Assembly (NCBI GenBank): GCA_903860135.1
Contig: CAIOPG010000009.1
Coordinates: forward strand, 175,805-239,804
Origin: Candidatus Omnitrophota bacterium
GTDB lineage: Bacteria > Omnitrophota > Gorgyraeia > Zapsychrales > Fredricksoniimonadaceae
Direction: 5' to 3'
DNA length: 64,000 bases
Numbering within the stretch: position 1 is the stretch's first letter; each line of letters starts with the position of its first letter. This document shows positions 23,758-41,586 of the stretch, piece by piece. The notes beneath the pieces are model-generated. The model was not told where the DNA came from, did no database searches, and saw only the letters and a list, made by a program, of their open reading frames with translations. A program made the position numbers and the translations under genes.

Positions 23758-24248
23758 GATCCTGTCCTTCCTGCCGATAGAACTTTATGAATAACATCCG
23801 CCGAGAAGCCGCGGCGGAGCAGATAATCCGTCATACGCCTGTTTCTTTGGAATGGCTCGAGATCTTTATAATGCGCCATTTTCTTCTCGACCAGCGCTAC
23901 CACCATCTCGCCTTCATTATAATCCGCACGAAGCTGATCCCATTCCCTGCGGACCAGCTCCGGTGCTATGCCCTTATCTTTAAGTTCAAGCGTTACACGC
24001 TTGATACCCAGCGGCCTTTGCAAACGGCAACGCAACCATGCCCGCGTAAAAGCCGGGTCATCGAGAAGCCCCCTGCGCACCAAAGAGGCAATGGTATCCT
24101 CGACCATCACTGCCGGATATGCCTTGCCCACCATTTTACGCCGCACCTCTTCGATGGCGCGCGGCCTGAATTTCAAAAGGCGTAACGCATAAACCTGCGC
24201 TTTTTTGCGGATGATCTCATCCATTACAGGAACATCCACCACACCCAT
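23754..24248 (-). CDS. recX: recombination regulator RecX
   Basis: 164 aa with repeated helical RecX-like segments (ALRLLKFRPRAIEEVRRKM, LDDPAFTRAW). Lies immediately downstream of recA. Confidence 0.85.
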   Translation of the reverse strand: MGVVDVPVMDEIIRKKAQVYALRLLKFRPRAIEEVRRKMVGKAYPAVMVEDTIASLVRRGLLDDPAFTRAWLRCRLQRPLGIKRVTLELKDKGIAPELVRREWDQLRADYNEGEMVVALVEKKMAHYKDLEPFQRNRRMTDYLLRRGFSADVIHKVLSAGRTGS

Positions 24249-24250
24249 CC

Positions 24251-25294
24251 CTACTCGGCATGTTTTGAAGGTAACGGCACCACCTTGGACTTCTCCAGGA
24301 TCACCTTCTCGATCTTCTGAGCCACCTTCGGATTCTCCTGAAGATAACGGCGCACATTATCGCGCCCCTGGCCGATGCGCTCACCTTCAAAAGCAAACCA
24401 GGCGCCAGACTTATCGATCACATTGTATTTGGTCCCCATATCCACCAGATCGCTGGCCAAGGAAATGCCCTCGTCAAAATGGATCTCAAATTCAGCCTCT
24501 TTGAACGGGGCCGCGACCTTGTTCTTGACGATCTTGGCACGCACCCGGTTGCCGATCACCTCATCGCCCCTTTTGAGCGTCTCGATACGGCGCAGGTCAA
24601 TGCGCACCGATGAATAGAACTTCAGGGCATTACCGCCGGTCGTTGTTTCGGGATTACCGAACATCACGCCGATCTTCATACGGATCTGATTGATAAAAAT
24701 GAGGCAAGTATTGGACTTGCTCGTAACCGCCGTTAATTTCCGAAGGGCCTGCGACATCAGCCGCGCATGCAACCCCATATGACTATCGCCCATATCACCC
24801 TCGATCTCGGCCTTGGGCGTCAACGCGGCCACAGAATCAATGACAACCAGGTCTACAGCACTCGACCGCACCAGCGTTTCCGCGATCTCCAGGGCCTGTT
24901 CACCGGTATCAGGCTGAGACACCAGCAGGTCTTCCAACTTAACACCCAACCTGGCCGCATACGCCGCGTCAAAAGCATGTTCAGCATCGATGAACGCCGC
25001 CACCCCGCCTTTTTTCTGGATCTGATGGATCAGGCTCAGCGTCAACGTGGTCTTACCCGAAGATTCCGGGCCGTAGATCTCAACCACGCGCCCGCGCGGG
25101 ATACCACCCACGCCAAGGGCAATGTCAAGGGCAATAGAACCGGTCGGGATCGAATCCACATCAACACGGGCCTGCCCGTCGAGTTTCATGATAGACCCCT
25201 TCCCGAACTGCTTTTCGATCTGCGTCAGCGCAAGATCCAGCGCTTTCTTGCGGTTTTCTGTTTCCGCAGGCGACATTTTTTTGACTTCCGACAT
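24251..25294 (-). CDS. recA: recombinase RecA
   Basis: [19 protein letters not shown] (Walker A), [19 protein letters not shown]. Start set to ATG 25294 (MSEVKK...), with GGAGGA about 8 nt upstream; the ORF-track start is 25348. Confidence 0.96.
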
Positions 25295-25364
25295 GTTCAT
25301 TTCCTCCAATAAGATAATATTAATAAGAAGGGGTGGATGATTATACAAAAGGAGGCTGTGATTG

Positions 25365-27080
25365 TCAACGCAACTTCAGCCCCCTCTTGCTCAATTGTAT
25401 GATCTTATCCAATCTTGGTCCATCCCCCAGAATGCTACCAATGATCTTAAGCCCCCGTGTCACGCCACCAGTGCCTTCGGCGTGCTCGAGTGCCAACAAA
25501 AAATTGATCGCCAACTCATCCGTATAATGTGAAGGCAATATCCGTTCAAGATACGTCACCGACACAGGATATTGCTTGATCGCGTAATAATAATCTGCCA
25601 TCCCCAACTGCCCATAATAAGATAATGGCACCTTATTGAATATCCGTTCAAAAGCCGCCTTCCCGTCATCCAAACGACCCAACTGTAAATAACAAACGCC
25701 AAGATAGTAATTTGAAAGCGTTGCGTCACACCCTGGATCTTTCAGGGCAAGCAAAAAATTATCTACTGCCTCTTGATATTTCTTCAATCGAAAAAACTCC
25801 GTTCCTTTAAAGAAATAGCCCATGTGGTGCTCTGGATAAGCCTTGACCCAAGCCTCACCCAGAGAGAAATTGCTCCGCCATACCAAATTACTTGTGATGG
25901 CGGGAAGAAGTAACGAAACGATGGCCGCAGAACATAAAAAATACCGCATCCCCGCCGATAAGCGACCACCCCATACCCGCCCCCAATATACAAGGAGCGT
26001 GGCCATCAAGAACGCTATACCCACAAAAGGGATATACATATAACGCAAAGCAACTGGATTGGGATTAACCCAATAAACCAAAGCCGGCAAAAAGAAAACA
26101 CACACCCATAATGCCGCCCATGAAACCTTTGTACGCCTCATTATTAAAATAATCATTGAAGCCATCAGCGTAACAACCAGAAATGCCAGACCTATCATGT
26201 CAACAGAAAGCCATGGGCGCGGCAATGGCCAATATAGAGGCGGCATAACACCAGCAGAAAGAACAAAACAGATCTCTTTTAAATAAAGTGCCACGATCTG
26301 AACAAAAACCGACATATACTCCTGCCAGCCATACCCGACAGCAAAGTTACGTATAAAACCAGTATTCTGGAAAACAAAGAAATATACATACAAATAAAAG
26401 AATGAAATAAAAAAGAACGGCCAATAGGGCCGTTGTTTTATAACCTTTGCCTCCAGCCCAAGAATCGTTCTGTCAAAGAATACAATGACCAATGGAAAGA
26501 AGAGGGCTGTCTCTTTGGAAAACAGTGCCAGAAAATAAGCTGTATACGCAAGAATGGCCCACAGCGCAGTAATCTTCTTTCGAAAATAAAGCCAGGATTG
26601 AAACGCGATCAAGAGAAAAAAACAAGCCAGCAAGTCTGATCTGTAGCCTATCGCAGCAACAGGTTCCGTATTAGCAGGATGAATAGCAAAAATAATGGCG
26701 GCTGACAAAGCTACGAGCGGTGTCGAAAGAAGCGCAACGATCTGATAAAGCAAAAGGACATTGGCCAAATGCAATACAAGACTTGTCAGATGATACCCGA
26801 AAGGGCGATTATCCCAACCCAAACAATCAAAGAAGAAACTCATCGTCGTCATAGGCCGGTAAGCTACTGACCCCGTTCCCTTGTCAGGAGAATGGCCATA
26901 CAGCACTTCATCGGGAATAACATTATACCCGGAACGGAAAATTCTAACGATATTGGACGAGTTTTTATAAAAAGAATTGTTGCCAAAGAGAGCATGATCA
27001 TCACCGGCAAAACCATTCCATAAAACACATGAAAAACACAATAGAATCAAAACAACAAGGCTGATCTTATGCTTGAACAT
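25365..27080 (-). CDS. polytopic membrane protein with C-terminal TPR repeats (GT-C fold, PMT/TMTC-like glycosyltransferase candidate)
   Basis: 571 aa. About 10 hydrophobic helices, and an early loop motif [10 protein letters not shown] resembling the first-loop DD/DE motif of GT-C mannosyltransferases. The C-terminal roughly 150 aa hold TPR-like repeats ([23 protein letters not shown]...). Confidence 0.6.
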
Positions 27081-27092
27081 TATAGCGTCACT

Positions 27093-27839
27093 TCAACTCA
27101 AGGAATTGTTTAGGATCGCAAAAGATACAACCGCTATCGCGGCTGTATCCACTTTTAAAACATTCTCACCGAGAGTCACAGGCACCGCACCAGCTAGCAC
27201 GGCTTCGACTGCTTCCTCAGGCGTGAAATCTCCTTCAGGTCCAATAAAAAAAACAAAATCCCCTGCATTTCGGCGCGCCGCCAGCGCCATACCCAAAGAA
27301 ATCCGTTCTCCTTCAAGCCATGGGAAAAAAAGAAATTTTCCGGGAACAGCTGTCATGGCCAGCGTTTGGAAGAAAGAAACCGGTAATGTGATCTCGGGAA
27401 ACCATGGACGCTTGCACTGTTTGGCCGCGTTGAGCGCCACCCTCTGGTAACGGGCAAGTTTATGATCAGCTTTCTCGCCGTGCACGTCGTTCTCGGTCCT
27501 TGCCGTAACCATAGGGATAATACGGTCCACCCCTAGCTCGGTGCACTTTTCAATGATCGTTTCAAATTTGGTTCTTTTGGGGATGGCGCAGGCCAGCGTG
27601 ATGTGCGGCCCATGATGCCTCGGAACAACGACAAGAGATCTGATATCAACCCAGGCCGCTGTGCGTGAAACCTCCCGAAGCACCCCTTGCGCCACGCCCC
27701 CTTGCCCGTTCACGATCTCGACGCTATCGCCTGCCTTCAAGCGCAGGACACGGGTCACATGGGCAAATTCATCAGGGTCATCGAGCAAAATACGCGTATC
27801 ATGGCCGGAAAATGGATGGAAAAATCTTCCCGCAGACAC
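27093..27839 (-). CDS. rsmE: 16S rRNA (uracil1498-N3)-methyltransferase RsmE
   Basis: 248 aa. N-terminal PUA-like HVTRVLRLKAGD, and a C-terminal SPOUT knot IGPEGDFTPEE. The start lies 2 nt after the stop of the last pilin-like gene. Confidence 0.88.
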   Translation of the reverse strand: MSAGRFFHPFSGHDTRILLDDPDEFAHVTRVLRLKAGDSVEIVNGQGGVAQGVLREVSRTAAWVDIRSLVVVPRHHGPHITLACAIPKRTKFETIIEKCTELGVDRIIPMVTARTENDVHGEKADHKLARYQRVALNAAKQCKRPWFPEITLPVSFFQTLAMTAVPGKFLFFPWLEGERISLGMALAARRNAGDFVFFIGPEGDFTPEEAVEAVLAGAVPVTLGENVLKVDTAAIAVVSFAILNNSLS

Positions 27840-27841
27840 GC

Positions 27842-28474
27842 CTAATAACCCCCGGCATTTTCTCGGAAAGTGATGCTGACTTGAGGATTGTCCGTTGTGC
27901 CAGCTGTAAGTGCCCCGGCACTCACAGCCGCGCCAGCAGACGGTGTTTTTCGTCCAACGACGGTCATCTGAAAATAATATTCTCCGGTAGCCCCATCAGC
28001 CACCAGCACAGGATCAGCAATATTGGCATGTGTAAACATATCTTTGACAACATACCCCTCAAAGGTATCTCCCGTAGTACAAGTACCCACTGCCGTCAAT
28101 TCACAACTATATACCGCTGTCTGATCAAGATCACCCGGCTTACTGAAGCAAGTCCAGTTGTCATCTGTGTAAATCTCGGGTGTGAATGCTCCCGATACCT
28201 GGACATCATGCCGAAAACAAAGTGACGAATTGGTGTTATTCAAGTAAATATTTACGCCTGTATCCGAAGGCGATCCATGAAGGCTCCGCACACTCATCCG
28301 TATCTTGTTCACTAAGTATTGAGCTTGGATGTTAATCAAGGCTTCCGAAGAAACATTACTGCCACTCTTGCGCAGTCCATAATCCACACTAAAAATGGCT
28401 GCCATCATGAAGGTGACAATAATGCTCGCCACAATAAGTTCAGCCATTGTAACGGCAGAAGAAGATACTTTCAT
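27842..28474 (-). CDS. minor pilin-like protein (degenerate prepilin N-terminus, 210 aa)
   Basis: Internal ATG 28474 gives MKVSSSA|VTMAELIVASIIVTFMMAAIF. This has a hydrophobic alpha1-N helix with Glu at +5 and Ala at -1. The ORF-track extension to 28621 overlaps the upstream gene. Last gene of the pilin string. Confidence 0.6.
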   Translation of the reverse strand: MKVSSSAVTMAELIVASIIVTFMMAAIFSVDYGLRKSGSNVSSEALINIQAQYLVNKIRMSVRSLHGSPSDTGVNIYLNNTNSSLCFRHDVQVSGAFTPEIYTDDNWTCFSKPGDLDQTAVYSCELTAVGTCTTGDTFEGYVVKDMFTHANIADPVLVADGATGEYYFQMTVVGRKTPSAGAAVSAGALTAGTTDNPQVSITFRENAGGY

Positions 28475-28476
28475 AA

Positions 28477-28824
28477 TCACCAATTTACCGTCACAGTAAC
28501 CTGGCGCGTTGTCCCGAAGCCAGCTACAACCGTGTAACTGGCTGATGTCATCGAGGTGCAATTGGGATAGGATGCCACAGTAACAGCATGCGCACCGAGC
28601 GTAAGCACGCCCGTACTCCATGTAGAACCCGCCACCGACTTATTCAAGCTATCCAGTATCTCTTTACCGCATAACCCCGCAACCATCCTCGCTTCCGATC
28701 CACGCCCCGAGACCCGCGTTTGGACAATGGTAGCCAAAACCCCCGCAGATGCCACCACAAAAATAACAGACGCGACAATAACCTCGGTCATAGAAAAACC
28801 TGCCTGATCCGTATAAAATTTCAT
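28477..28824 (-). CDS. minor pilin/pseudopilin (prepilin-type N-terminal domain, 115 aa)
   Basis: ATG 28824 gives MKFYTDQAG|FSMTEVIVASVIFVVASAGVL, with Gly -1, Phe +1 and Glu +5. ATGA overlap with the upstream stop at 28821. Confidence 0.75.
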   Translation of the reverse strand: MKFYTDQAGFSMTEVIVASVIFVVASAGVLATIVQTRVSGRGSEARMVAGLCGKEILDSLNKSVAGSTWSTGVLTLGAHAVTVASYPNCTSMTSASYTVVAGFGTTRQVTVTVNW

Positions 28825-29210
28825 GGACAATTAGCCCCCGCGCATGAAGGATTAGTTCCGGCCACAACTGGACTTGCTAATGTGACCGTGACCGTCAGAC
28901 CAGATCCAATACTGCCCACACATGTCCCGCTACCACAGGAATACGACACCCCGTCAGCAATAATATGTGTAGCCAACGCCGTATTGATAGCATTGATATC
29001 AGCAGCTACCAGATTAGTGCCGTTGTTATACAAACGATACTGGGCATTGGCGGCATGAATGATACTCAAATTATCCACAACAGAACGCCCGCGCGTGCGA
29101 TCAATCGTCTTAATAAACTGCGGGATAGCCATACCAACCAATATTCCGGAAATGACAAAAATAACCATTAACTCAATCATGGTAAAAGCTTCATTATAAA
29201 GTTTAGTCAT
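28821..29210 (-). CDS. minor pilin, paralog family 2 (129 aa, C-terminal SCAGANCP)
   Basis: ATG 29210 gives MTKLYNEA|FTMIELMVIFVISGILVGMAIPQF. Shares SIIHAANA, AINTAL, YSC and the terminal CxGxxCP with the next two genes. ATGA overlap at 29207-29210. Confidence 0.8.
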   Translation of the reverse strand: MTKLYNEAFTMIELMVIFVISGILVGMAIPQFIKTIDRTRGRSVVDNLSIIHAANAQYRLYNNGTNLVAADINAINTALATHIIADGVSYSCGSGTCVGSIGSGLTVTVTLASPVVAGTNPSCAGANCP

Positions 29211-29581
29211 GGACAACTTGTTCCTGTACATGTCGCAACGCCCGAACTTGTGTTCGGAGTTGTTACAACAAATCCCGTACCCGTAGCCGTGCATTCCGTA
29301 CCTGAAGAACAAGAATATGTGGCACCATCAGCCTTAATATTTAACCCGAGAGCCGTATTTATGGCAGCCACATCTCCAGCCGTAGTATTAGCTCCAGAAC
29401 GTGAAAGAAAGAGGGCATTAGCCGCATGAATAATCGAAATGTTCGTCATGGCCGAACGCGCCTTTGACCGTAAAATAGTTTTTGAAAACTGCGGAACAGC
29501 AAATGCGGCAATGATTGAAATGATGCTCAAAACAACAATAAGTTCAATCAGCGTAAACCCGCTACGCATAAAATACCTCAT
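29207..29581 (-). CDS. minor pilin, paralog family 2 (124 aa, C-terminal TCTGTSCP)
   Basis: ATG 29581 gives MRYFMRSG|FTLIELIVVLSIISIIAAFAVPQF. SIIHAANA, AINTAL, YSC motifs. ATGA overlap at 29578-29581. Confidence 0.8.
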   Translation of the reverse strand: MRYFMRSGFTLIELIVVLSIISIIAAFAVPQFSKTILRSKARSAMTNISIIHAANALFLSRSGANTTAGDVAAINTALGLNIKADGATYSCSSGTECTATGTGFVVTTPNTSSGVATCTGTSCP

Positions 29582-29973
29582 GGGCAACTTGAACCAGAAC
29601 AAGATGGATTTGAGTCACTTAACGCAGTAGCCAACGTGAGCGTCTCTGTAAACCCTGAACCTGTCGCAAGGCATGTCCCTGAATCAGTACAGGAATAAGT
29701 CACTCCATTCGACGTGATCTTTAACTCCAGAGCCGTATTAATGGCCACTAAATTTCCGGCTGTAGATGCATTAACATTTGAATTATTATTACGTAAACGA
29801 TAATACCCATTAGCCGCGTGGATCAGATTAAGATTGGCGATCCCTGCACGTGCATAGGCACGCTTGGTACTTTTTGAAAGAAGCGTGGTCGCAAAAATTG
29901 CTAAAATACCAACAAGCGCCAACACAATTATCATTTCAATGAGCGTAAAAGCCTGACGCATAGTTGGTCTCAT
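29578..29973 (-). CDS. minor pilin, paralog family 2 (131 aa, C-terminal SCSGSSCP)
   Basis: ATG 29973 gives MRPTMRQA|FTLIEMIIVLALVGILAIF. NLIHAANG, AINTAL, YSC motifs. ATGA overlap at 29970-29973. Confidence 0.8.
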   Translation of the reverse strand: MRPTMRQAFTLIEMIIVLALVGILAIFATTLLSKSTKRAYARAGIANLNLIHAANGYYRLRNNNSNVNASTAGNLVAINTALELKITSNGVTYSCTDSGTCLATGSGFTETLTLATALSDSNPSCSGSSCP

Positions 29974-30389
29974 GCGCACGGCGTATTAGGACAAATTTTC
30001 TTAAGTGTGTCCGGACATGAACCACACGAAAAAGCACCCGCTGCAGACACACTAACAGTATATGAACCTGTCGCTGGCTGAACAGCGGATTTTATCGTCA
30101 ATGAAACAGCACCCGTTGATGTATTGCACACAGGTGCCGCAAAATTCGTCGGCGTAACCGTTACATCCAGATTGGCACAAGCGGCACTGGTATCATAGGT
30201 GCTTTTTTCAAGATTATACCTTATCTGAGCCGCGTTGAGCGTGTTAAGGACATTAATCCCTTCAGTAAAGATCGTTTGATCCTTCGCTCCTACCATACGC
30301 GGTACAGCCAACGACGCCAATACACCAATGATAACAATCACGACGATAATTTCAATTAATGTAAAAGCAGACGATCGTATTATATTCAT
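29970..30389 (-). CDS. pilin-like protein (139 aa, Cys-rich C-terminus)
   Basis: MNIIRSSA|FTLIEIIVVIVIIGVLASLAVPRM. The C-terminus is FSCGSCPDTLKKICPNTPCA. Confidence 0.8.
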   Translation of the reverse strand: MNIIRSSAFTLIEIIVVIVIIGVLASLAVPRMVGAKDQTIFTEGINVLNTLNAAQIRYNLEKSTYDTSAACANLDVTVTPTNFAAPVCNTSTGAVSLTIKSAVQPATGSYTVSVSAAGAFSCGSCPDTLKKICPNTPCA

Positions 30390-30401
30390 ACCATTCCAAA
30401 A

Positions 30402-30818
30402 CTAATTCTTCAATGTTGAAAAAATCCCACCCTTTATCTTTGTAACAGTTCCCGCAGGGGCATTCAGCCTAAGCGTGATCGTATCAGCAACTCCTGCACC
30501 ACCTTTTAAAGTAGCTGTCGCACCGCAAGCAGATGCATTCGCACATTCAGTAGCGGTAAATGAATACGTAAAATTAGTTGATGCCGTTGGAAATGAATAG
30601 CCCGATATTGCTGTTATATTATTACATGCCGTATAATCTTCACTGTTCTGAATATAACATTCCTGGACTTTGCGCATCAAAACGCCAAGCTGCATATAAG
30701 CCTCTGCCGCTTTGGCAATATTCACCTGAGCGCTAAGACGCGGCAAAGCTACTGCGGCCAAAACACCAATGATGATAACAACAATGATGATCTCGATTAG
30801 TGTAAAGCCTTTTTTCAT
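30402..30818 (-). CDS. type IV major pilin candidate, tandem copy 1 (138 aa)
   Basis: MKKG|FTLIEIIIVVIIIGVLAAVALPRLSAQ: a very short leader, Gly -1, Phe +1, Glu +5, and four Cys. Near-identical to the next two genes. Confidence 0.88.
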   Translation of the reverse strand: MKKGFTLIEIIIVVIIIGVLAAVALPRLSAQVNIAKAAEAYMQLGVLMRKVQECYIQNSEDYTACNNITAISGYSFPTASTNFTYSFTATECANASACGATATLKGGAGVADTITLRLNAPAGTVTKIKGGIFSTLKN

Positions 30819-30836
30819 TACTTACCCCATTTCCAA

Positions 30837-31256
30837 TTAATTCTTTAATGTAGAGAAAATACCGCCCTTGGTTTTTGTAACAGTTCCCGCAGGGGCATTC
30901 AGGGTAAGCGTGATCGTATCAGCAACTCCTGCACCACCTTTTAAAGTAGCTGTCGCACCGCAAGCAGATGCATTCGCACATTCAGTAGCGGTAAATGAAT
31001 AGGTAAAATTACTTGATGCCGTTGGAAATGAATAGCCCGATATTGCTGTTACATTATTACATGCCGTATAATCTTCACTGTTCTGAATATAACATTCCTG
31101 GACTTTGCGCATCAAAACACCAAGCTGCATATAAGCCTCTGCCGCTTTGGCAATATTCACCTGAGCGCTAAGACGCGGCAGTGCTACTGCGGCCAAAACA
31201 CCAATGATGATAACAACAATGATGATCTCGATTAGTGTAAAACCCTTTTTTTTCAT
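30837..31256 (-). CDS. type IV major pilin candidate, tandem copy 2 (139 aa)
   Basis: MKKKG|FTLIEIIIVV.... Differs from copy 1 by four residues plus one Lys in the leader. Confidence 0.88.
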   Translation of the reverse strand: MKKKGFTLIEIIIVVIIIGVLAAVALPRLSAQVNIAKAAEAYMQLGVLMRKVQECYIQNSEDYTACNNVTAISGYSFPTASSNFTYSFTATECANASACGATATLKGGAGVADTITLTLNAPAGTVTKTKGGIFSTLKN

Positions 31257-31313
31257 ACATTTCCTTTTTTAGTGTTTTATTAGTATGTTCCTGCATTAAT
31301 AATATTTTTGGAA

Positions 31314-31730
31314 TTAATTCTTCAAAGTTGAAAAAATACCACCCTTTGTTTTTGTAACGGTTCCCGCAGGGGCATTCAGCGTAAGCGTGATAACATCCGC
31401 CGCCGCACCACCTTTTAAAGTAGCTGTCGCACCGCAAGCAGATGCATTCGCACATTCAGTAGCGGTAAATGCATATGTAAAATTACTCGATCCAGTTGGA
31501 AAGGAATAACCAGATATCGCTGTTACATTATTGCATGCCGCATAATCTTCACTATTCTGAACATAACATTCTTGGACTTTGCGCATCAAAACACCAAGCT
31601 GCATATAAGCCTCTGCCGCTTTGGCAATATTCACCTGAGCGCTAAGACGCGGCAACGCTACTGCGGCCAAAACACCGATAATGATAACAACAATGATGAT
31701 CTCGATTAGTGTAAAACCTTTTTTTTTCAT
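31314..31730 (-). CDS. type IV major pilin candidate, tandem copy 3 (138 aa)
   Basis: MKKKG|FTLIEIIIVV.... The N-terminal roughly 55 residues are identical to copies 1 and 2, and the C-terminal half is slightly diverged. Confidence 0.88.
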   Translation of the reverse strand: MKKKGFTLIEIIIVVIIIGVLAAVALPRLSAQVNIAKAAEAYMQLGVLMRKVQECYVQNSEDYAACNNVTAISGYSFPTGSSNFTYAFTATECANASACGATATLKGGAAADVITLTLNAPAGTVTKTKGGIFSTLKN

Positions 31731-31787
31731 ACATTTCCTTTTTTAGTGTTTTATTAATATCTTCCTGAATTAAAAATATTTTTAAAA

Positions 31788-32207
31788 TTAATTCTTCAAA
31801 GTTGAGAAAATACCCCCCTTTGTTTTTGTAATCGAACCAGCTGAAATATCCAGCTTAAGAGTGATAACATCCGCAGCGTTCGCATTGGTTCCACTGAATG
31901 AAGCTTGACCTACACAATTATTAGCATCTGGACACAGAGAAGAATTAAAATTATATGTAAAATTAGGAGTTACTGGAAATGTATAACCTGATAGAGCTGT
32001 CACCTCGTTGCATCCCGCCATGATGTCACCATTTTGAATATAACATTCCTGGACTTTGCGCATCAGAACACCCAGTTGCCTATAGGCCTCAACGGCTTTT
32101 GTAGTATTAACCTGATTCGTAACACGAGGCATAGCTATCGCTGCTAAGACTCCAATAATTATAACAACAATTATTACTTCAATCAATGTAAACCCATTTT
32201 TATACAC
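31788..32207 (-). CDS. type IV major pilin candidate, tandem copy 4 (more diverged, about 139 aa)
   Basis: Shares GFTLIE..IIVVIIIGVLAA, QLGVLMRKVQECYIQN and the terminal TKTKGGIFSTLKN with copies 1-3. I favour GTG 32207 (MYKNG|FTLIEV), which gives the same 5-residue leader as the paralogs. The ORF-track start 32222 is also a GTG. Confidence 0.8.
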   Translation of the reverse strand: MYKNGFTLIEVIIVVIIIGVLAAIAMPRVTNQVNTTKAVEAYRQLGVLMRKVQECYIQNGDIMAGCNEVTALSGYTFPVTPNFTYNFNSSLCPDANNCVGQASFSGTNANAADVITLKLDISAGSITKTKGGIFSTLKN

Positions 32208-32281
32208 GTATATCCTACCCACATGTTATCTGTATACAAATATGACATATTTAAATAAATAAAGCGAATATAAATAATTAA

Positions 32282-33508
32282 TTATCCTCCGGTAGATAAA
32301 GAAAGTATAGGTAGAAACATCGCGATAACAATTAGACCTATTACACCACCCATGATAACAAGCATAACGGGTTCAATAAGAATGCTGAATCGCTTCAAAA
32401 ATTCTTCAACATTAGCTTTATAATATATGGCGACATTATTCAACATCTTGCCAAGCTCACCGGTTTCCTCGCCAACACGGATCATCTGCACCGTCATCGA
32501 AGGGAAAAATCCACTTCTTTCCATTGGATCTGCCAAAAGCTGCCCCTCACGTACGGCTTCACGCACATTTCTTATAACTTCCGCACAAACCACATTATCC
32601 ACCAGTCTCTCCGATATCTCCAAAGAATAAAGAATGGGGACACCGCTTTCCATAAGGGTGGACATTTGAGATGTAAACTTCTCAATTACAATTAATTTTA
32701 TCATACCACCGAAAATAGGAACTTTAAAAAGAAAAGTCTCAAATTGCTTTCTTCCAAGAGGTGTTTTAATGTAATTCATGAAAAGAAAAATGCTTCCGGC
32801 CCCTCCAGCAATAAGTATAAAAAATCTCTCTTTCAATAATTTGAAAATTGACATCATTATGACCGTGATAGTCGGGAGCTTGATATCCATATCAGAAAAA
32901 ATACGTTCAAATGTAGGCCCGACAAAAAGAGCGAAAAACAAAACAGCTCCGATACAAATAAAACAAAGAACCATCGGATAAACAAGGGCTCCTATAATAG
33001 TAGACTTGAACTTGGCTGTATCCTCCATATATTGTGTCAACTTGTTGAGAACTTTCGGTAATGTACCAGATGCTTCACCAACCTCAATAAGACTGACCCA
33101 AAAAGCAGTAAACACCTTGGGATATTTTGAAATAGCGCTACTGAAAGTACGACCCTGTTCAACATCTGTGACTACCGCCTCAATGATGACGGTTAACCCA
33201 CGACTTTCCAGCTGAGAGCTGATGATCTTGAGCGATCGCATTAACAAAACACCTGCTCCCATCATCGCAGAAAGTTGACGCGCAAAAGAAACAACATCAT
33301 TTAATGAAATATTATTGTGCGAAAACACCCGCTTCTTTGCAACTGACGTCACAGGCTGTTGATTCTCAACAAACTGTTTTACAGCGGTTACAAAAAGCCC
33401 TTTTTGCTGTGCAAACTTAACAGCCTGCTGATCATTAATGGACTCTACAACCTCATTAAATACATGCCCTGAATTATCTTTAGCAGTAACAAGAAATTTG
33501 GCCATCAA
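32282..33508 (-). CDS. pilC: type IV pilus/T2SS platform protein (GspF/PilC family)
   Basis: 408 aa. Two T2SSF repeats (FARQLSAMMGAGVLLMRSL; FTSQMSTLMESGVPILYSL), three TM segments, and a C-terminal IEPVMLVIMGGVIGLIVIAMFLPI. Confidence 0.9.
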   Translation of the reverse strand: MMAKFLVTAKDNSGHVFNEVVESINDQQAVKFAQQKGLFVTAVKQFVENQQPVTSVAKKRVFSHNNISLNDVVSFARQLSAMMGAGVLLMRSLKIISSQLESRGLTVIIEAVVTDVEQGRTFSSAISKYPKVFTAFWVSLIEVGEASGTLPKVLNKLTQYMEDTAKFKSTIIGALVYPMVLCFICIGAVLFFALFVGPTFERIFSDMDIKLPTITVIMMSIFKLLKERFFILIAGGAGSIFLFMNYIKTPLGRKQFETFLFKVPIFGGMIKLIVIEKFTSQMSTLMESGVPILYSLEISERLVDNVVCAEVIRNVREAVREGQLLADPMERSGFFPSMTVQMIRVGEETGELGKMLNNVAIYYKANVEEFLKRFSILIEPVMLVIMGGVIGLIVIAMFLPILSLSTGG

Positions 33509-33523
33509 TTTCCCCAGATCAAT

Positions 33524-35233
33524 TTATATAACAATAGATAAAATTTCCTCAAGGCTCGTGACACCTTCTTCAACCTTCTTCATCCCAACTTCAAAAAGTG
33601 TCGCCATTCCAGCTTTAGATGCTGCGTCCTTCAATTCGTCATAGGAAACATTGTTACCGATCATACGCCGTATAACATCATTAATGGCAAGAACCTCTGA
33701 TACGACCATGCGTCCCCTGTATCCGGTGTGCCCGCATTTATCGCACCCTTTAGCGCGATAAATCAAATCGGTAGACAACTTGATAGACCCCAGATCTTCC
33801 GGCCTCGGTTCATAGGGCTCTTTGCAATCGGCGCATAACTTACGCGCTAAGCGCTGGCTCACAATCATCGTTAATGACGGTGTTAATAAATATGAGGGGA
33901 CACCTATATCCATCAAGCGGCTTATCGCTGACGGTGCGTCATTGGTATGCAGTGTTGAAAGGACAAAGTGACCTGTTAATGCCGCACGCACACATATCTC
34001 TGCTGTCTCAAGATCACGTATTTCACCAACCATAATGATATCCGGATCCTGTCGAAGAAACGATCGTAACGCCTGTGCAAATCCAAAGCCAATATCAGGA
34101 CGCACATGAACCTGGTTAATTCCATCAATGCGGAACTCAACAGGATCTTCTGCTGTCATAATATTCTTGGTGCGATCAAAAACTTCAGAAAGAGAAGAAT
34201 AAAGGGTCGTCGACTTACCACTACCCGTAGGTCCTGTTATAAGAAAAAGACCATACGGAACTTTAAGTGCTTTACGGATGAGTTCTAACTGGGACGCATT
34301 AAATCCAAGCGTAGCCAAATCAAGTTTTACTGCATTCTTATCCAGGATACGCATAACCACTTTCTCTCCCCAAACGGTAGGAACGGTGGACACACGCAGA
34401 TCAACAACACGGTTTTGATCAAACTTTACAGAAATACGCCCATCCTGCGGCAATCGCCTCTCGGCAATGTCAAGCCTAGAAATGATCTTAATGCGCGATA
34501 CGATCGAAGCATGAAGATGTTTTGCCGGCGGAGGGATTTGATAAAGATCACCGTCGATACGATAACGAAGTTCGATCTTGTCCTTAAAAGGTTCGATATG
34601 AATATCACTTGCCCGGTCATCAATAGCCTGCCTGATAATAAGATCCACAAGCTTGATGATCGGCGCTTCTTCGGCTGTTGCGATCAACCTGTCAAGACTT
34701 AACTCCGACTCAGATTTATCATCACCGGATGTTGAGAAATTACTCGAGTCATTCTGCGCTCTTTCAACCGCCTTTCCCCAAGCACCACCCTCATCGGCCA
34801 GATAAAACCGCTCCAATGATTTTAGAATATCGGTACGTGTCGCAATGACAAAGTTTATTTCACAACCAGTCATCTTTTTCAAATTATCGATCATAATAAG
34901 ATCAAATGGATTAAAGATCGCGCATGTCAGTGAATTACCATTCCGATTAAGTAACAATACAAGATTATCTACAGCATACTGATACGAAATAAGCTTTTCA
35001 AGGCCCTGCCCTTTTTGAGGATTCAATAGGCCTGAAGCTTCGGAGGCATATGGAATAAGAAGCTGTGTCCCAAGAGCCACAGCCAAGTCGCTTTCATTAA
35101 TAAATCCCATTTTGACCAAAATTTCTCCGACATGACTCTTGTCGGTCTTTTGGGCATCTATAGCAGACTGGAACTGGGCTTCGGTAATTAAGCCCTTTTT
35201 AATAAGTATTTCACCAAGCTTTAACCGTGCCAT
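33524..35233 (-). CDS. pilB: type IV pilus assembly ATPase (GspE/PilB family) with N-terminal MshEN-type domain
   Basis: 569 aa. Walker A GPTGSGKST, Walker B DPDIIMVGEIRD, His box GHFVLSTLHTNDA, and a tetracysteine CADC...CDKC. The N-terminus holds two 24-residue MshEN-like motifs. Confidence 0.92.
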   Translation of the reverse strand: MARLKLGEILIKKGLITEAQFQSAIDAQKTDKSHVGEILVKMGFINESDLAVALGTQLLIPYASEASGLLNPQKGQGLEKLISYQYAVDNLVLLLNRNGNSLTCAIFNPFDLIMIDNLKKMTGCEINFVIATRTDILKSLERFYLADEGGAWGKAVERAQNDSSNFSTSGDDKSESELSLDRLIATAEEAPIIKLVDLIIRQAIDDRASDIHIEPFKDKIELRYRIDGDLYQIPPPAKHLHASIVSRIKIISRLDIAERRLPQDGRISVKFDQNRVVDLRVSTVPTVWGEKVVMRILDKNAVKLDLATLGFNASQLELIRKALKVPYGLFLITGPTGSGKSTTLYSSLSEVFDRTKNIMTAEDPVEFRIDGINQVHVRPDIGFGFAQALRSFLRQDPDIIMVGEIRDLETAEICVRAALTGHFVLSTLHTNDAPSAISRLMDIGVPSYLLTPSLTMIVSQRLARKLCADCKEPYEPRPEDLGSIKLSTDLIYRAKGCDKCGHTGYRGRMVVSEVLAINDVIRRMIGNNVSYDELKDAASKAGMATLFEVGMKKVEEGVTSLEEILSIVI

Positions 35234-35242
35234 AATTTAATC

Positions 35243-36745
35243 CTATTTCTTTTGTACACTCATAGAGTCCATGGCAGAACGAATAATGCTCTGTCTTATC
35301 ACACCGCTACTTTCGCGAATTCCAAGATCAGCAGGAACAGTGTCAACAACGAAATCACTGCCAGGATCCATGACACGGGGGGTAATAAAAATAAGGAGCT
35401 CCCTGTCTTTGGTAGTCGTAGTATCGTGACGGAACACACGCCCGAGAAAAGGAATGTCTCCTAAGACCGGAAGTTTTGTCTGAACTTTTTGTTTCTCAGA
35501 ACGTAACAATCCTCCGAGAACAACAGTTTCACCCGAATGTATCCTCATTTTAACCTTAGCACTACGGATCTCTGTGTCCTTAAAAGTCACCCCGCTATAA
35601 GTTCCACCCAAACGCGCAACAACCACGCGTGGTGAAACAGCCAGTAAAATATCACCTGTCATCAAATTTAACTGAGGCGTGACCGTCAACGTAATCCCCG
35701 TCTCAACTCGTTCAGGTTCAACAGTGGATCCTTGCGTTATTGTCGCCGCTGCCGTCACTTTAACACCAATAGCTTCCGACGCAGTAATCTTAATCTGTGC
35801 CGTTTCATTATTCATGGTCCAAATTCTTGGGCGCGCTAAATTCCTAGCATCTGTTGACGTCTTTAAAAACTGTAACATAGCCGAAAAAGCATTTCCGCCC
35901 ATCGCGCCCTGTGAATACGTAACCTCTGTGCCCCCCTTACTAAGTGCATTCTTTTGGTCAAGAGGGAAATAAAAACTCCTCCCTCCCAGTCCTTTGAAAT
36001 CATATAAGGTGTTGCCAAACTTAACACCTATCTCATCAGCTACTTCCTTAGAAACATCTATCATCTGGACTTCAATCAATATCTGGGCAACCGGCACATC
36101 CAGTTTAGCCAATGTTCGTTCGATCAAAGGAAAATTTGTATCTTCATCAGAAATGATCAGGCTGTTGGTCCGTGAATCTTCAGCGATCTTGGCCGAAGCT
36201 GTTAATACTGTTTTCAAAATATCCACGAGAGCAACGCTCGTCGTTACTGTATTGCTCCCAGCACTCGACGATCCATTACCCCCCCCTTCTTCTGCGGTAA
36301 TTCCGAATGTTGATTGCAACTTTGAAGATGCAACAGTAGCATATTTTAAAGGATAAACACGCGTTATGATATTCTTTTCAGCCTTGATATTATCGATCAT
36401 CAAAATATTGTCATTATTATCATATGAATAAGAAAGTCCATTTGCCGTCAAAATTTTTTTCAAAGCATCCTCAACAGGAACAGCATCAAGAAAAAGTGTT
36501 ATAGGGTCGGTTTTAACAGCGTCTGAAACAATAAAATTGGCACCTATCTGACGAGAGAAGGCCTTCAAAACATCCCTGATATCTGCATTCTTGAAATCAA
36601 GGGAAACAAGTTGAGAATATTGTGGAAGTATAAAACTGTTCTGACTACCAGCTGAAGTAGTGGCAGAAAAAACTTGAGTAAATAAAGAAATTTGAATAAT
36701 ATTGGTAAGTAAAAATATAAATAAATATTTATTTTTTAAACCCAT
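35243..36745 (-). CDS. pilQ: outer-membrane secretin (PilQ/GspD family), short form
   Basis: 500 aa. Signal peptide, N0-like domain (VSLDFKNADIRDVLKAFSRQIGANFIV), and a C-terminal secretin core (LPVLGDIPFLGRVFRHDTTTTKDRELLIFITPRV). Confidence 0.9.
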   Translation of the reverse strand: MGLKNKYLFIFLLTNIIQISLFTQVFSATTSAGSQNSFILPQYSQLVSLDFKNADIRDVLKAFSRQIGANFIVSDAVKTDPITLFLDAVPVEDALKKILTANGLSYSYDNNDNILMIDNIKAEKNIITRVYPLKYATVASSKLQSTFGITAEEGGGNGSSSAGSNTVTTSVALVDILKTVLTASAKIAEDSRTNSLIISDEDTNFPLIERTLAKLDVPVAQILIEVQMIDVSKEVADEIGVKFGNTLYDFKGLGGRSFYFPLDQKNALSKGGTEVTYSQGAMGGNAFSAMLQFLKTSTDARNLARPRIWTMNNETAQIKITASEAIGVKVTAAATITQGSTVEPERVETGITLTVTPQLNLMTGDILLAVSPRVVVARLGGTYSGVTFKDTEIRSAKVKMRIHSGETVVLGGLLRSEKQKVQTKLPVLGDIPFLGRVFRHDTTTTKDRELLIFITPRVMDPGSDFVVDTVPADLGIRESSGVIRQSIIRSAMDSMSVQKK

Positions 36746-36749
36746 ACTA

Positions 36750-37265
36750 TCAATCTTTCAATAATAACTTGTAAAGAAATTCGTTGTAATCTATTTCCAC
36801 ACGGCCTTTGCGGATAGCCAAAATCCTTACCCCCTCTGATCTATCCCCCAAACCCAATATATTTCCATTTAAAATAACCATTGGATTCCTTGTTTTATAA
36901 AATATTCCTGTCACTTTCAGCACAGGCAACGAGGCTATTGATAATTTCCTTACAGGTTGCGCTGAGGGTATCGCAACAAAGTGCTTTATTTCAGGAATAA
37001 CAGCAACTATCGGTCTATCTACTACTGGCTTAACTAAATTATCAGCTTCCTTGCGAAAATCTTTACTAACAAGATCTGGTCTGGCTTTAAACGGATGGAA
37101 AGGCTCCCCAAGAGACTCTATCATCATTTCAAACGGAAGCTTATTAGTCTCATTGGCGTAAGAAAGAGTTGAATTAAAATGAAATAATTGAAAACTATAG
37201 ATAAAAAGAATATTATACATTAAAAAAAGATGATGCCTACTTCTTTTTAAAATTTTTATGTTCAT
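36750..37265 (-). CDS. PilP/GspC-like periplasmic protein (hypothetical)
   Basis: Start at ATG 37265 (MNIKILKRSRHHLFLMYNILFIYSFQLF...SYA|NE), a plausible signal peptide. The C-terminus LKVTGIFYKTRNPMVILNGNILGLGDRSEGVRILAIRKGRVEIDY resembles the PilP/GspC HR beta-domain. Lies just upstream of the secretin gene. The start is uncertain (alternatives 37301 and 37220). Confidence 0.5.
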   Translation of the reverse strand: MNIKILKRSRHHLFLMYNILFIYSFQLFHFNSTLSYANETNKLPFEMMIESLGEPFHPFKARPDLVSKDFRKEADNLVKPVVDRPIVAVIPEIKHFVAIPSAQPVRKLSIASLPVLKVTGIFYKTRNPMVILNGNILGLGDRSEGVRILAIRKGRVEIDYNEFLYKLLLKD

Positions 37266-37854
37266 TATCTTCCACCAGTTGAAGCAACGAAATGGTAACA
37301 TCCAGCGTCATCGCATCCGTCTGGACTCCTGAATTAACCGGATTGTACTTAATCAACAGGCTATCCAATTTGATCATGTACCCGGAAGATTCCATATCAT
37401 GAACAAATAATAGCATATCCTTGACATTAAGGGAAGAAGCACTAAAACTCATACAAATAGAACGAAAAAAACCATCATTGCTAGTCTGCAATGGATTAAA
37501 AGCATCAATTGTAATTCGTCGCCGCGTGGCACGCCCTGTAACATAAGATATAAAATCAGCCTTGACCAATCCCAAAGGCATCTTGCACATATAATCAGTC
37601 AGATATTTGTTGCTTTGCTCAAGATCCTGGATAGGCTGTCTTTTTGATTGCAAAATCTTTTTTCTCGACGCAAGAGACTGATATTGATTAAAATTTTTAG
37701 TTGTAAGAAAAACTATTACACAAAATCCCAATAAAACAATCAAAGAATTAGTCGCTAAAACTAAATTCTGATTTACATAATGGTTACAATCCTTAATAAA
37801 TTTTGAAGGATTATTTAGATATATTTCGAAATTCTTTAAATCATCAAGATTCAT
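37237..37854 (-). CDS. PilO-like bitopic membrane protein (hypothetical)
   Basis: ATG 37854 forms an ATGA overlap with the upstream stop. One TM helix (LVLATNSLIVLLGFCVIVFL), then a coiled-coil-like segment and a C-terminal alpha/beta region. Position between PilM-N and the PilP-like gene matches pilO. Assigned by architecture and position only. Confidence 0.5.
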   Translation of the reverse strand: MNLDDLKNFEIYLNNPSKFIKDCNHYVNQNLVLATNSLIVLLGFCVIVFLTTKNFNQYQSLASRKKILQSKRQPIQDLEQSNKYLTDYMCKMPLGLVKADFISYVTGRATRRRITIDAFNPLQTSNDGFFRSICMSFSASSLNVKDMLLFVHDMESSGYMIKLDSLLIKYNPVNSGVQTDAMTLDVTISLLQLVEDNEHKNFKKK

Positions 37855-39455
37855 TTCGCCTCGCACGTAATCGAAAACGCTGTGACTTTTCTATTATCAT
37901 ATTCTCGAACCTGTAAAGAAACAATCTTAATTTGTGTGAAATTAGTGGCGAACAAATTATCGCTATTTAAAGCATTAAAGAAATGATTAACCCTTTCAAA
38001 TTCTATATTGTTGTCCTTCAAAGACACATACCCCGAAAAGGTCATTGCCGTCTTGGTCTGAAGTGAATAATAATCAACCTCTTTGTTCCCGGGCTCAGGG
38101 ACCTTGCGCGCCGAAACAGGCTCATCTTTAAAAGACAAACTAACAGACTCAAGCCAAAATCCGGATGGCAGTCGTTTGACCAGCCGCACCAACATCTTTG
38201 TCGCCCGTGCATCGAAAGGCAATGATTTCAATGAAAATAACTTCTTGACATTCTTCATTTTCTTCTGAACGGCGTCTGACTCATCTATATCAACGTATTC
38301 CCCGATCTCCTGCTCAAGATTAACAACTTCCTGTCTAAACTTAGACAGAAGCTGATCAGCAAAGAATGCAACAGAAAAGATCAGTGTAAAAACACCGGCC
38401 CCCACCGCCAAGGGCAAAACCAATGCTTGCCTCCTCTGGTCAATTTCAACTTGCTTGAGAGAAACCTGCTGTTTGGAACCTTCAAACAAATTAAAGTCAA
38501 TAACAGTAACCACTTTACTCATCATGGCCACGCCGTAGGCATACACAGCCGCCATTGTATTGCAATCATTGTGATCTACAAGTCTAAAAATATCAACAAT
38601 CTCAACATTGACCCCGAGTTCCTCTCCCATCTTGTCCCACAAAGCATTATTTCCGCCAATGGATATGGCCACCATTCTCTGGACTTCCTCCCCGCCATAC
38701 TGACGCAAGAAGAATTCGGAAGAAATACGGATCTCATTGAAAACTTTGGAACGTAGCTCATCATCGATCTGAAGAGTGCCAACACCCTGATGCACACCTC
38801 CCTGAAGATTAAACTCACGGATAAACTTGACATACCCTTTTTCACAAATAAGGAGTTCTCCGATATAACCATCGACATAAACAATCGCCGTTAATTCATC
38901 GGGATCAACGATCTTTCTAAAAACCAATGCACGGTAAAGACTAGCCGACGCCGGTTCACTGTAAACAACATTTATACCTGCTTGCATTAAAGCATCCGCA
39001 TGTTTTTCAAAAACATCTTTACGGATAGCAACAAATATAATGCCAATCTGCCGCGGATTACTTCCTAGAATATTCGAAGGAAAATATGTGTACGACAACT
39101 CATCAATTGGGAAAGGAATATACTTCTTGGCTTCGAAGATAACAACATCCTGTATCTCGCTTGACTTCATCCACGGAATACTGAACCAGCGAATAATAAT
39201 ATCTTTTGAAGGGATAGAAAGAAATGTTTCCTGCGTTGAAAAACCTTTATTTCGAACAGATTTTTGCAGTGCATCTAGAATCTGCATATCATGCGGTAAA
39301 GACTTCTTGTCAGCAGTGGAAGCCACGTCTTCCGGCGATACAAAAGGAACAAATGTCCCTATGGCGGGTGCGTTGCTCTCCAGTTGAACCAGCGTGAATC
39401 CGCTTGATCCCGAGTAAACCCCTAATCGCTTCTCACTGGCCATACCCAACCTCAT
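37851..39455 (-). CDS. pilM: PilM-PilN fusion (actin-like ATPase-fold pilus assembly protein joined to a TM helix and periplasmic PilN-like domain)
   Basis: N-terminal LGVYSGSSGFTLVQLE and FEAKKYIPFPIDEL resemble PilM motifs. A TM helix near residue 345 (ALVLPLAVGAGVFTLIFSVAFFA) is followed by about 170 aa. The likely true start is ATG 39443 (GAGG 6 nt upstream); the ORF-track start is 39455. Confidence 0.7.
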   Translation of the reverse strand: MRLGMASEKRLGVYSGSSGFTLVQLESNAPAIGTFVPFVSPEDVASTADKKSLPHDMQILDALQKSVRNKGFSTQETFLSIPSKDIIIRWFSIPWMKSSEIQDVVIFEAKKYIPFPIDELSYTYFPSNILGSNPRQIGIIFVAIRKDVFEKHADALMQAGINVVYSEPASASLYRALVFRKIVDPDELTAIVYVDGYIGELLICEKGYVKFIREFNLQGGVHQGVGTLQIDDELRSKVFNEIRISSEFFLRQYGGEEVQRMVAISIGGNNALWDKMGEELGVNVEIVDIFRLVDHNDCNTMAAVYAYGVAMMSKVVTVIDFNLFEGSKQQVSLKQVEIDQRRQALVLPLAVGAGVFTLIFSVAFFADQLLSKFRQEVVNLEQEIGEYVDIDESDAVQKKMKNVKKLFSLKSLPFDARATKMLVRLVKRLPSGFWLESVSLSFKDEPVSARKVPEPGNKEVDYYSLQTKTAMTFSGYVSLKDNNIEFERVNHFFNALNSDNLFATNFTQIKIVSLQVREYDNRKVTAFSITCEAK

Positions 39456-39511
39456 TGCTTTTATAAAAATGAATACTTTTAGCTAATAATCAATCGCAAG
39501 AAACGTATGCA

Positions 39512-39841
39512 TCAGTAACTAACATCCATCGTGAATGCCCTTGTTGCCCCTGGTCCTCCGCCGGCTACTTGGGTATAATGAACCGAATATGTTGTTCCGT
39601 CAACATATTCAGAGAAATCCGTAAGTGTTGTCGAACCACCGGCGTAAATCTCGCGTGCCCACCATAAAGCTTTTTTGGCAATAAGTTCCGCCTGAAGATG
39701 CTTTCTTTCACGTTCGGAAATAAGTGCCTGTGAATAATTTCGCGATAACACACCTAAAACCAAGATTGACATAAGCATAACAGCCGCAATAACTGTCAGT
39801 AAAATTACCCCCCGCTCACTACCGTATTCTCTTCTAATCAT
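39512..39841 (-). CDS. PilX_N/GspK-like pseudopilin-like protein (about 109 aa, no Glu5)
   Basis: Internal ATG 39841 gives MIRREYGSERGVILLTVIAAVMLMSILVLGVLS, resembling the ERGxALxxVL N-terminus of PilX/GspK-type proteins. The ORF-track extension to 39952 overlaps the upstream gene. Confidence 0.5.
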   Translation of the reverse strand: MIRREYGSERGVILLTVIAAVMLMSILVLGVLSRNYSQALISERERKHLQAELIAKKALWWAREIYAGGSTTLTDFSEYVDGTTYSVHYTQVAGGGPGATRAFTMDVSY

Positions 39842-40073
39842 GAATTCCCTCCTCAAGATAACTCTGACAAAGTGGACAACGCACAACCTCAGTCTTTCCG
39901 TTACTGATAATGATATGGCTGCAATAGGGGCATTGCCTAACAATACCCGCACTTGATGCCTCCCTGTTTACGCCATCATCCACAACGGCATATTTAAACC
40001 ACATAAACCCAAAAAAAATAATCATGACAGAAAGACAAAGACTTACGCCCAAGGCAATATCTATCGTGATCAT
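39834..40073 (-). CDS. small membrane-anchored zinc-ribbon protein (79 aa)
   Basis: N-terminal TM helix (IALGVSLCLSVMIIFFGFMWF), then CPYC-x14-CPLC. 4-nt overlap with the upstream TonB-like gene and 8-nt overlap with the downstream gene. Confidence 0.55.
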   Translation of the reverse strand: MITIDIALGVSLCLSVMIIFFGFMWFKYAVVDDGVNREASSAGIVRQCPYCSHIIISNGKTEVVRCPLCQSYLEEGIHD

Positions 40074-40896: not shown

Positions 40897-40899
40897 GCC

Positions 40900-41568: not shown

Positions 41569-41586
41569 TTAGGCATCCTTCGGCTA

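Follow-up and report, generated by a model that had tools for sequence, protein, structure and literature searches.

Four full-length prepilin genes lie head to tail on the minus strand of a 64,000-nucleotide (nt) stretch of a Candidatus Omnitrophota genome (contig CAIOPG010000009.1, positions 175,805 to 239,804; hereafter the window), and are named c4, c3, c2, and c1 in their order of transcription. The differences among them are most readily understood if recombination between the copies homogenises the first ~350 nt of each gene and changes copy number, with the edges of the repeat escaping and all copies being translated, yielding more pilin and possibly mixed fibres—a reading to which we assign a probability of about three in four. 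The array comprises the following features:

31788..32207, minus strand: c4, the first and most diverged pilin copy, 139 amino acids (aa) from GTG 32207 (open reading frame, ORF)
31731..31787, minus strand: 57-nt spacer between c4 and c3, with AAGGAAATGT, Shine-Dalgarno-like, at its end before the ATG
31314..31730, minus strand: c3, pilin copy, 138 aa (ORF, codon-aware alignment)
31257..31313, minus strand: 57-nt spacer between c3 and c2, a duplicate of the c4/c3 spacer with 6 differences
30837..31256, minus strand: c2, pilin copy, 139 aa, leader MKKKG (ORF, alignment)
30819..30836, minus strand: c2/c1 spacer, 18 nt, of a sequence unrelated to the two 57-nt spacers; conserved in the related contig L002 (see below), between its copies c and d
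30402..30818, minus strand: c1, the last pilin copy, 138 aa, leader MKKG (ORF, alignment)
30402..30443, minus strand: position-specific 3′ end of c1 (last 13 codons and stop), which appears to escape homogenisation
30837..30878 (c2), 31314..31355 (c3), and 31788..31829 (c4), minus strand: equivalents of this 3′ end in the other copies

A first-pass annotation of the same DNA had proposed four tandem full-length pilin genes, and all of its coordinates hold, the strand being minus. It had also described a 57-nt upstream segment duplicated with six differences, a different 18-nt leader before c1, and a separate start and Shine-Dalgarno-like sequence for each copy; the two spacer types are as described, and a start codon with a Shine-Dalgarno-like sequence was found in all four copies. 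The c4/c3 spacer is also conserved in L002, and the next pilin-like gene starts only 12 nt after c1. Tandem Repeats Finder reports arrays over the locus with periods of 435 (2.9 copies) and 474 (2.1 copies). The c4 product is 64% identical in amino acid sequence to those of c1–c3 (68–71% at the nucleotide level). G−1, F+1, E+5, and four Cys residues are kept in every copy, the ratio of nonsynonymous to synonymous divergence (dN/dS) among copies is ~0.1–0.3, and all four genes are under purifying selection. The start of c4 is ambiguous: GTG 32207, with TAGGA ahead of it, gives a 5-residue leader like those of the other copies, and an alternative in-frame GTG at 32222 would give a 10-residue leader and a protein of 144 aa, the same upstream codon being ATG in L002; gene callers accordingly return c4 as 139 or 144 aa, depending on the assembly.

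Divergence along these genes is not uniform. In a codon-aware nucleotide alignment, c1 and c2 differ by 18 substitutions over 414 nt plus one codon indel, corresponding to 95.7% identity (19 substitutions if the stop codon, TAG vs TAA, is included), and c3 is 91.7% and 91.8% identical to c1 and c2, respectively. The earlier hand count had found the indel but one substitution too few (17). It had correctly placed eight of them in the last 13 codons (columns 386, 388, 389, 395, 398, 404, 407, and 413), six being synonymous and two falling in one codon (ATA/ACC, Ile/Thr); the remainder number 10 rather than 9. The run of approximately 60 nt that it reported as identical in c1–c3 spans 61 nt, columns 76–136 (LPRLSAQVNIAKAAEAYMQLG). 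Along the gene, the differences between c1 and c2 amount to 8 in the 324 sites of the 5′ body, 2 in the next 51, and 9 in the 42 at the 3′ end. The maximum chi-square for this pair is 36.5, with a breakpoint at column 386 and a permutation p of ~0.001, and synonymous divergence (dS) rises from 0.083 in the 5′ body to 0.645 over the last 22 codons. Sawyer's runs test (SSCF) gave p = 0.0002 for the four copies and p = 0.012 for c1–c3 alone, and 207 of 465 pairs of informative sites are incompatible. The departure from uniform divergence that the first-pass annotation had put forward as a check is thus borne out by the maximum chi-square and Sawyer's runs tests. Its proposal of 5′ homogenisation by recombination is likewise supported, with the extent enlarged from two-thirds to ~85% of the gene (columns 0 to ~350 of 420).

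Comparison with L002, a contig from another sample that shares 92.0% identity with 8.6 kb of the window, separates the age of the copies from the similarity of their bodies. L002 likewise has four copies in tandem, with spacers of the same lengths (57/57/18/12 nt); its copies L2_a, c, and d are the counterparts of c4, c2, and c1 of the window (W). Positional counterparts are almost identical in their last 42 nt (0, 2, 0, and 1 differences), whereas paralogs within a genome differ there at 5–9 sites. This correspondence of each 3′ end with its counterpart means that the copies arose long before the two genomes diverged. Over the first 330 columns the relationship is reversed: c1 and c2 of the window differ at 8/324 sites, vs 21/324 for the counterparts c1 and d and 11/327 for c2 and c. 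In the quartet of c1, c2, d, and c, six sites group the copies by genome, all in columns 53–335, and ten group them by position, of which nine lie at column 355 or beyond and one in the 5′ body (Fisher's test, one-sided p = 7/8008, ~9 × 10−4). Sawyer's runs test on six sequences from the two genomes gave p = 0.0003. The c4 pair, c4 and L2_a, differs at 16 of 420 nt. Such a contrast between bodies that group by genome and 3′ ends that group by position is the textbook mark of concerted evolution, acting on the gene body and sparing the 3′ edge and the spacers.

Tandem duplication is common in bacteria, and the high overall identity of c1–c3 would also be expected of a plain recent duplication without conversion, in which the 3′ cluster of differences would mark a mutation hotspot or relaxed constraint. 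We regard this explanation as very improbable. The 3′ differences are almost all synonymous within a strictly conserved peptide, TK(T/I)KGGIFSTLKN, so constraint has not been relaxed there; the 3′ variants are fixed copy for copy in L002, so the copies predate the split, and yet the 5′ bodies are closer within a genome; and the significant runs test is likewise at odds with duplication alone.

For the preferred reading, concerted evolution by recombination, we infer the following course of events. RecA-type homologous recombination between misaligned copies would repeatedly copy stretches from the first ~350 nt of one gene into its neighbour, either as non-reciprocal gene conversion or by unequal crossing-over, the latter also altering copy number. 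The last ~40–70 nt and the spacers, lying at the edge of the shared homology, would keep their old position-specific synonymous differences. All four genes are most likely translated from read-through transcripts, giving near-identical subunits from c1–c3 plus one divergent subunit from c4, and these subunits could increase the supply of pilin and assemble together into mixed fibres. A promoter for each copy was also considered, and is unsupported by the sigma-70 consensus scan of the array spacers.

A possible product of such an exchange is c3 itself. Its body resembles c1 and c2, and its last ~40 nt, together with a patch at columns 329–344 (AADVITL), resemble c4; over the final 42 nt, only 2 sites separate c3 from c4, vs 5–6 that separate it from c1 and c2. 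The c4-like AADVITL patch is present in c3 of the window and not in its L002 counterpart. Since the c4-like 3′ end is followed by a duplicate of the 57-nt c4/c3 spacer, c3 has the appearance of a hybrid produced by unequal crossing-over of c4 with a c2-like gene.

Several points weigh against this reading or against parts of it. The pairwise homoplasy index (PHI) test is not significant (p = 0.13), the counts are small, and a 42-nt segment bears the key contrast. The phasing of the copies rests on short-read metagenome assemblies, and assemblers can collapse or mix near-identical repeats; coverage of L002, taken from its contig name, is only ~4.8×; and some of the same-genome sites, and all of the hybrid variants described below, could be assembly products. 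Furthermore, dS between the window and L002 is very uneven over the 8.6 kb (0.05 in the PilC gene, 0.08 in c4, 0.18 in the gene at 29970–30389, and 0.38 in the gene for the RsmE methyltransferase), which suggests recombination between lineages across the locus and weakens arguments made from a single "species split" distance. The status of the array family as the major pilin is not proven, and is weakened by the fact that pilin family models match its N-terminus only; the next gene (29970–30389) is also GspG/PilA-like at its N-terminus. No sigma-70 promoter or intrinsic terminator consensus was found within the array, and the counts are no higher than in shuffled sequences. Finally, no PilT gene is present in the 64-kb window, and no prepilin peptidase gene (Peptidase_A24, PilD family) among its ORFs; the former may lie elsewhere in the genome, as pilT often does.

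The point about assemblies bears most directly on whether the array is what it seems. The four-copy layout also appears in two contigs assembled from the same population in different samples, of 258,189 nt and 272,553 nt; the latter (L001) matches the window exactly over 12.4 kb. Proteins identical to those of c1 and c2 were found on three contigs each, and to those of c3 and c4 on four each. Not every assembly of this population agrees. In one contig, of 257,752 nt, the array has three copies and ends in a hybrid of c2 (5′) and c1 (3′), with the next gene directly after it; this contig falls 437 nt short of the 258,189-nt four-copy contig, which compares with a c2-to-c1 period of 438 nt. A 1,676-nt fragment lacks c3, and runs from c4 through a 57-nt gap to a c2 allele (M43I), an 18-nt gap, and the next copy. 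In a further contig, L089, a gap of 100 N extends from c3 to c2, and its only mismatches to the window (5 in 6,317 nt) all lie in c1, at sites that distinguish c1 from c2, and all in the c2 state. The stretch concerned is as follows:

30567..30807, minus strand: part of c1 in which L089 carries the c2 base at 5 sites (contig comparison)

These variant arrays are either real recombinants or the result of assembler collapse, and are expected products of both. They are the chief grounds for supposing that there are in truth fewer or differently phased copies, and that the mosaic—possibly even the four-copy layout—arose from short-read mixing of repeats or strains: the three-copy hybrid, the gap and c2 bases of L089, and the fragment without c3 show that same-population assemblies disagree, and L002 is thinly covered. 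That the array is such an artefact nevertheless seems improbable. Identical copy proteins recur on three to four contigs, including the two long ones from different samples, and the four-copy layout with the same spacers recurs in L002, a different species-level relative. Uninterrupted identity between c1 and c2 extends over ~100 nt at most, which is shorter than the k-mer if the name k141_ of a window-matching contig means 141-mers. Moreover, mixing by an assembler cannot make old position-specific 3′ ends that are common to both genomes.

Other relatives place the array in context. At the syntenic locus, one copy of the family is present in L087, and two are present in L004, L088, and L171:

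L004, 5420..6411: two-copy pair
L088, 1160..2171: two-copy pair
L171, 4415..5417: two-copy pair

As these relatives carry only one or two copies, the array of the window can be regarded as an expansion to four intact tandem genes. In the two-copy relatives, spacers of ~170 nt separate the copies. L004 and L088 carry a sigma-70-like site (10/12 matches) between their copies, with a long palindrome after the last one. The L004 pair differs at ~25% of sites, yet contains a 60-column block with zero differences; mosaic exchange therefore recurs in the clade. In a further relative (L170, 200–3606), transposase genes of the IS110 and IS66 families come after a pilin homologue (P0005) that has 62% identity to c2, the contig beginning 200 nt upstream of the pilin. 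A scan of genome contigs with the pilin alignment returned mostly proteobacterial and cyanobacterial pilins, with only L042 from Omnitrophota, and is uninformative for the clade because the patterns correspond to the generic N-terminal pilin motif. A scan of metagenome contigs with c2 gave a best match of 48% identity over the N-terminus, and no close relatives.

Membership of the copies among the type IV pilins (class III signal peptide proteins) is supported by several features. A prepilin cleavage and methylation motif is present (MKKKG/FTLIEIIIVV in c1–c3 and (M)YKNG/FTLIEVIIVV in c4), the Pfam N_methyl model scores 28.8 bits for c1 and 31.6 bits for c4 (cut-off 21.2), and NCBIfam TIGR02532 scores 33.5–34.6 bits on the copies (cut-off 16.3). 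The predicted fold is like that of type IVa pilins, a "lollipop" with a long alpha1 helix on an antiparallel beta-sheet head, and the array family would represent the major fibre subunit. A reading of the genes as type II secretion system pseudopilins, as prompted by the gene order D-E-F-G and weak GspG N-terminal matches, was ruled out on score and fold; the array cluster shows no full-length GspG equivalog match with GspC, GspL, and GspM partners. The closest named homologues of the copies are proteins of Candidatus Omnitrophota metagenome-assembled genomes (MAGs).

The nearest mechanistic parallel, by analogy, is ordinary concerted evolution of bacterial paralogs, as known from tufA/tufB and the rRNA operons, where it proceeds by gene conversion. 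As in those families, the paralogs are more alike within a genome than their age predicts, conversion fades at the edges of the homology block, and unequal crossing-over alters copy number. The gene family and organism are different, however, and the copies here are in tandem, only 12–57 nt apart, so that frequent copy-number change by unequal crossing-over is to be expected.

In Neisseria, RecA-dependent non-reciprocal transfer between pilin copies gives rise to mosaic pilin genes; the donors are silent, promoterless, 5′-truncated pilS cassettes scattered in the genome, and a G-quadruplex (G4) element near pilE initiates the process. The array shares with this system the transfer of sequence between pilin copies to give mosaic genes. 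In contrast to pilS, however, its copies are complete, adjacent, and apparently expressed, and the exchange mainly homogenises. No G4 motif, defined as (G3+N1-7)x3 G3+, was found on either strand of the window, and no extra, silent, or 5′-truncated pilin copies elsewhere in it. The pilE/pilS model therefore fails on its defining features, and the first-pass annotation was right to set the layout of four intact copies apart from that of silent cassettes.

Functionally, the nearest parallel would be pilE1/pilE2 of Streptococcus sanguinis, two adjacent and highly similar major pilins that co-assemble into a heteropolymeric type IV pilus (PMC4832360, PMC6497953, PMC10628169). The genes of the array are likewise adjacent full-length paralogs inside the pilus cluster, with their own starts and near-identical N-terminal helices. 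This likeness fits co-assembly into one fibre, for which intact neighbouring paralogs with an identical alpha1 helix would supply the genetic prerequisite. There are four copies rather than two, and the host is a diderm member of the Omnitrophota with a secretin, unlike S. sanguinis. Within the phylum itself, most type IVa pilus components have been described in most Omnitrophota classes (Seymour et al., 2023; PMC10066038); its clusters represent the same kind of machine, and tandem major-pilin arrays or their recombination are not described in the passages covered by our term search. Among the papers covered, our literature search on tandem pilin genes with concerted evolution found none that was directly relevant.

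The variation among the copies might itself be the selected function. The array would then be a dedicated variation device, consisting of all-expressed cassettes that shuffle surface residues and copy number, for example for phage escape or partner attachment. The amino acid differences among c1–c3 and the L002 copies, the leader indel aside, are confined to the head domain (residues 57–129), with the alpha1 helix identical in c1–c3; hybrid alleles and copy-number variants occur between samples; and the Omnitrophota have been proposed to be host-dependent organisms with type IVa pili (PMC10066038). A dedicated device is given little credence here, however: dN/dS is well below 1 (0.1–0.3) with no sign of diversifying selection, only ~10 residues vary among c1–c3, the window contains no G4 motif or silent cassettes, and conversion among near-identical copies mostly erases diversity. 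Unlikely, though by no means negligible, is an open cassette system, in which all copies are expressed and frequent exchange yields new head mosaics, c4:c1–3 ratios, and copy numbers in the population. If so, an ultra-small and possibly host-attached Omnitrophota bacterium could adjust its pilus surface with neither silent cassettes nor a dedicated initiator, and the three-copy hybrid, the array without c3, and the c1 with c2 bases would be genuine recombinants sampled from natural populations.

The window is a core chromosomal region with a type IVa-pilus-like gene cluster. All of its genes lie on the minus strand, and those outside the cluster are of a housekeeping nature (arginine, lysine/diaminopimelate, and histidine biosynthesis, uvrA, alaS, recA/recX, secDF, and ribosomal proteins). 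The cluster runs in the order pilM/N, two small ORFs, secretin, PilB-like ATPase, PilC, and then ten pilin-like genes, and, beyond the array, contains the following:

37851..39455, minus strand: PilM-like protein with a weak PilN-like C-terminus, 534 aa (Pfam PilM_2, 46.9 bits; PilN weak)
35243..36745, minus strand: secretin, PilQ/GspD-like (Pfam Secretin, Secretin_N, STN)
33524..35233, minus strand: assembly ATPase, PilB-like (Pfam T2SSE, 455 bits, and MshEN)
32282..33508, minus strand: platform protein PilC/GspF, directly upstream of the array (Pfam T2SSF, 186 bits)
27842..30389, minus strand: six further pilin-like ORFs downstream, presumed minor pilins (5 of 6 with Pfam N_methyl), at 29970-30389, 29578-29979, 29207-29602, 28821-29312, 28477-28830, and 27842-28621

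Against NCBIfam models, the platform protein scores 316.9 bits for GspF and ~291 bits for PilC, all below the cut-offs, the ATPase 621.7 bits for PilB (cut-off 675.65) and 586.8 bits for GspE (cut-off 630.25), and the secretin about equally for PilQ and GspD (~195 bits). The N-terminus of the ATPase carries an MshE-type motif for binding cyclic diguanosine monophosphate (c-di-GMP) (NF053729, 56.9 bits; cut-off 38), which suggests that pilus assembly may be under c-di-GMP control. The PilM-like protein matches pilM (67 bits) and the Amuc_1101 family (62.8 bits), both below cut-off; the latter family is the PilM-like protein of the Akkermansia pilus-like cluster. This protein is unusually long at 534 aa, and the secretin weakly matches the Amuc_1098 family. 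The Amuc_1101 and Amuc_1098 matches hint at a possible PVC-type variant of the machine. PilO was not identified in the pilus cluster with Pfam or NCBIfam models.

Among the presumed minor pilins, the ORF at 27842-28621 has no Pfam or NCBIfam match and is counted by position only; the order of the six is conserved in L002, L003, L004, L087, and L088. Three of them (29578-29979, 29207-29602, and 28821-29312) are mutually paralogous, with common motifs such as AINTAL...G.(T/S)YSC...(N/A)P.C.G..CP, and constitute a second, older tandem triplication at the locus. One member of this triplet family precedes the major-pilin copies in L004.

The region from 26000 to 44000, which spans the pilus locus from pilM to the pilins, the tetratricopeptide repeat (TPR) protein, and ExbB/ExbD, has a GC content of 35–47%, vs 50–55% in its flanks; the array has 40%, vs 49.5% for the whole window. 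The neighbourhood of pilins, RsmE methyltransferase, TPR membrane protein, recA, and recX is conserved in L003 and L004, and in L001, identical to the window, it extends through recA as far as the locus end. The recA and recX genes (23754–25348) lie ~5 kb downstream of the array, a proximity that is probably coincidental to the recombination seen there. Conserved beside the pilus locus is a 571-aa multi-pass membrane protein with C-terminal TPR repeats (25365–27080), the counterparts of which in L003 and L087 show weak matches to PMT_2 (GT-C glycosyltransferase); it could be a pilin-glycosylating enzyme.

Overall, the array is a clear case of well-known gene-family evolution, with no new mechanism. 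It offers a clean natural example, complete with an outgroup genome, of gene conversion fading at the edge of a homology block, and a warning that short-read MAGs will often mis-assemble this locus. For the organism, it represents a fibre gene amplified to four copies, whose sequences recombination keeps similar and whose number may vary from sample to sample. In the uncultured, ultra-small Omnitrophota, type IV pili are the leading candidates for attachment organelles (PMC10066038), and the array gives a concrete handle on how Omnitrophota cells tune the amount or surface of their pili.

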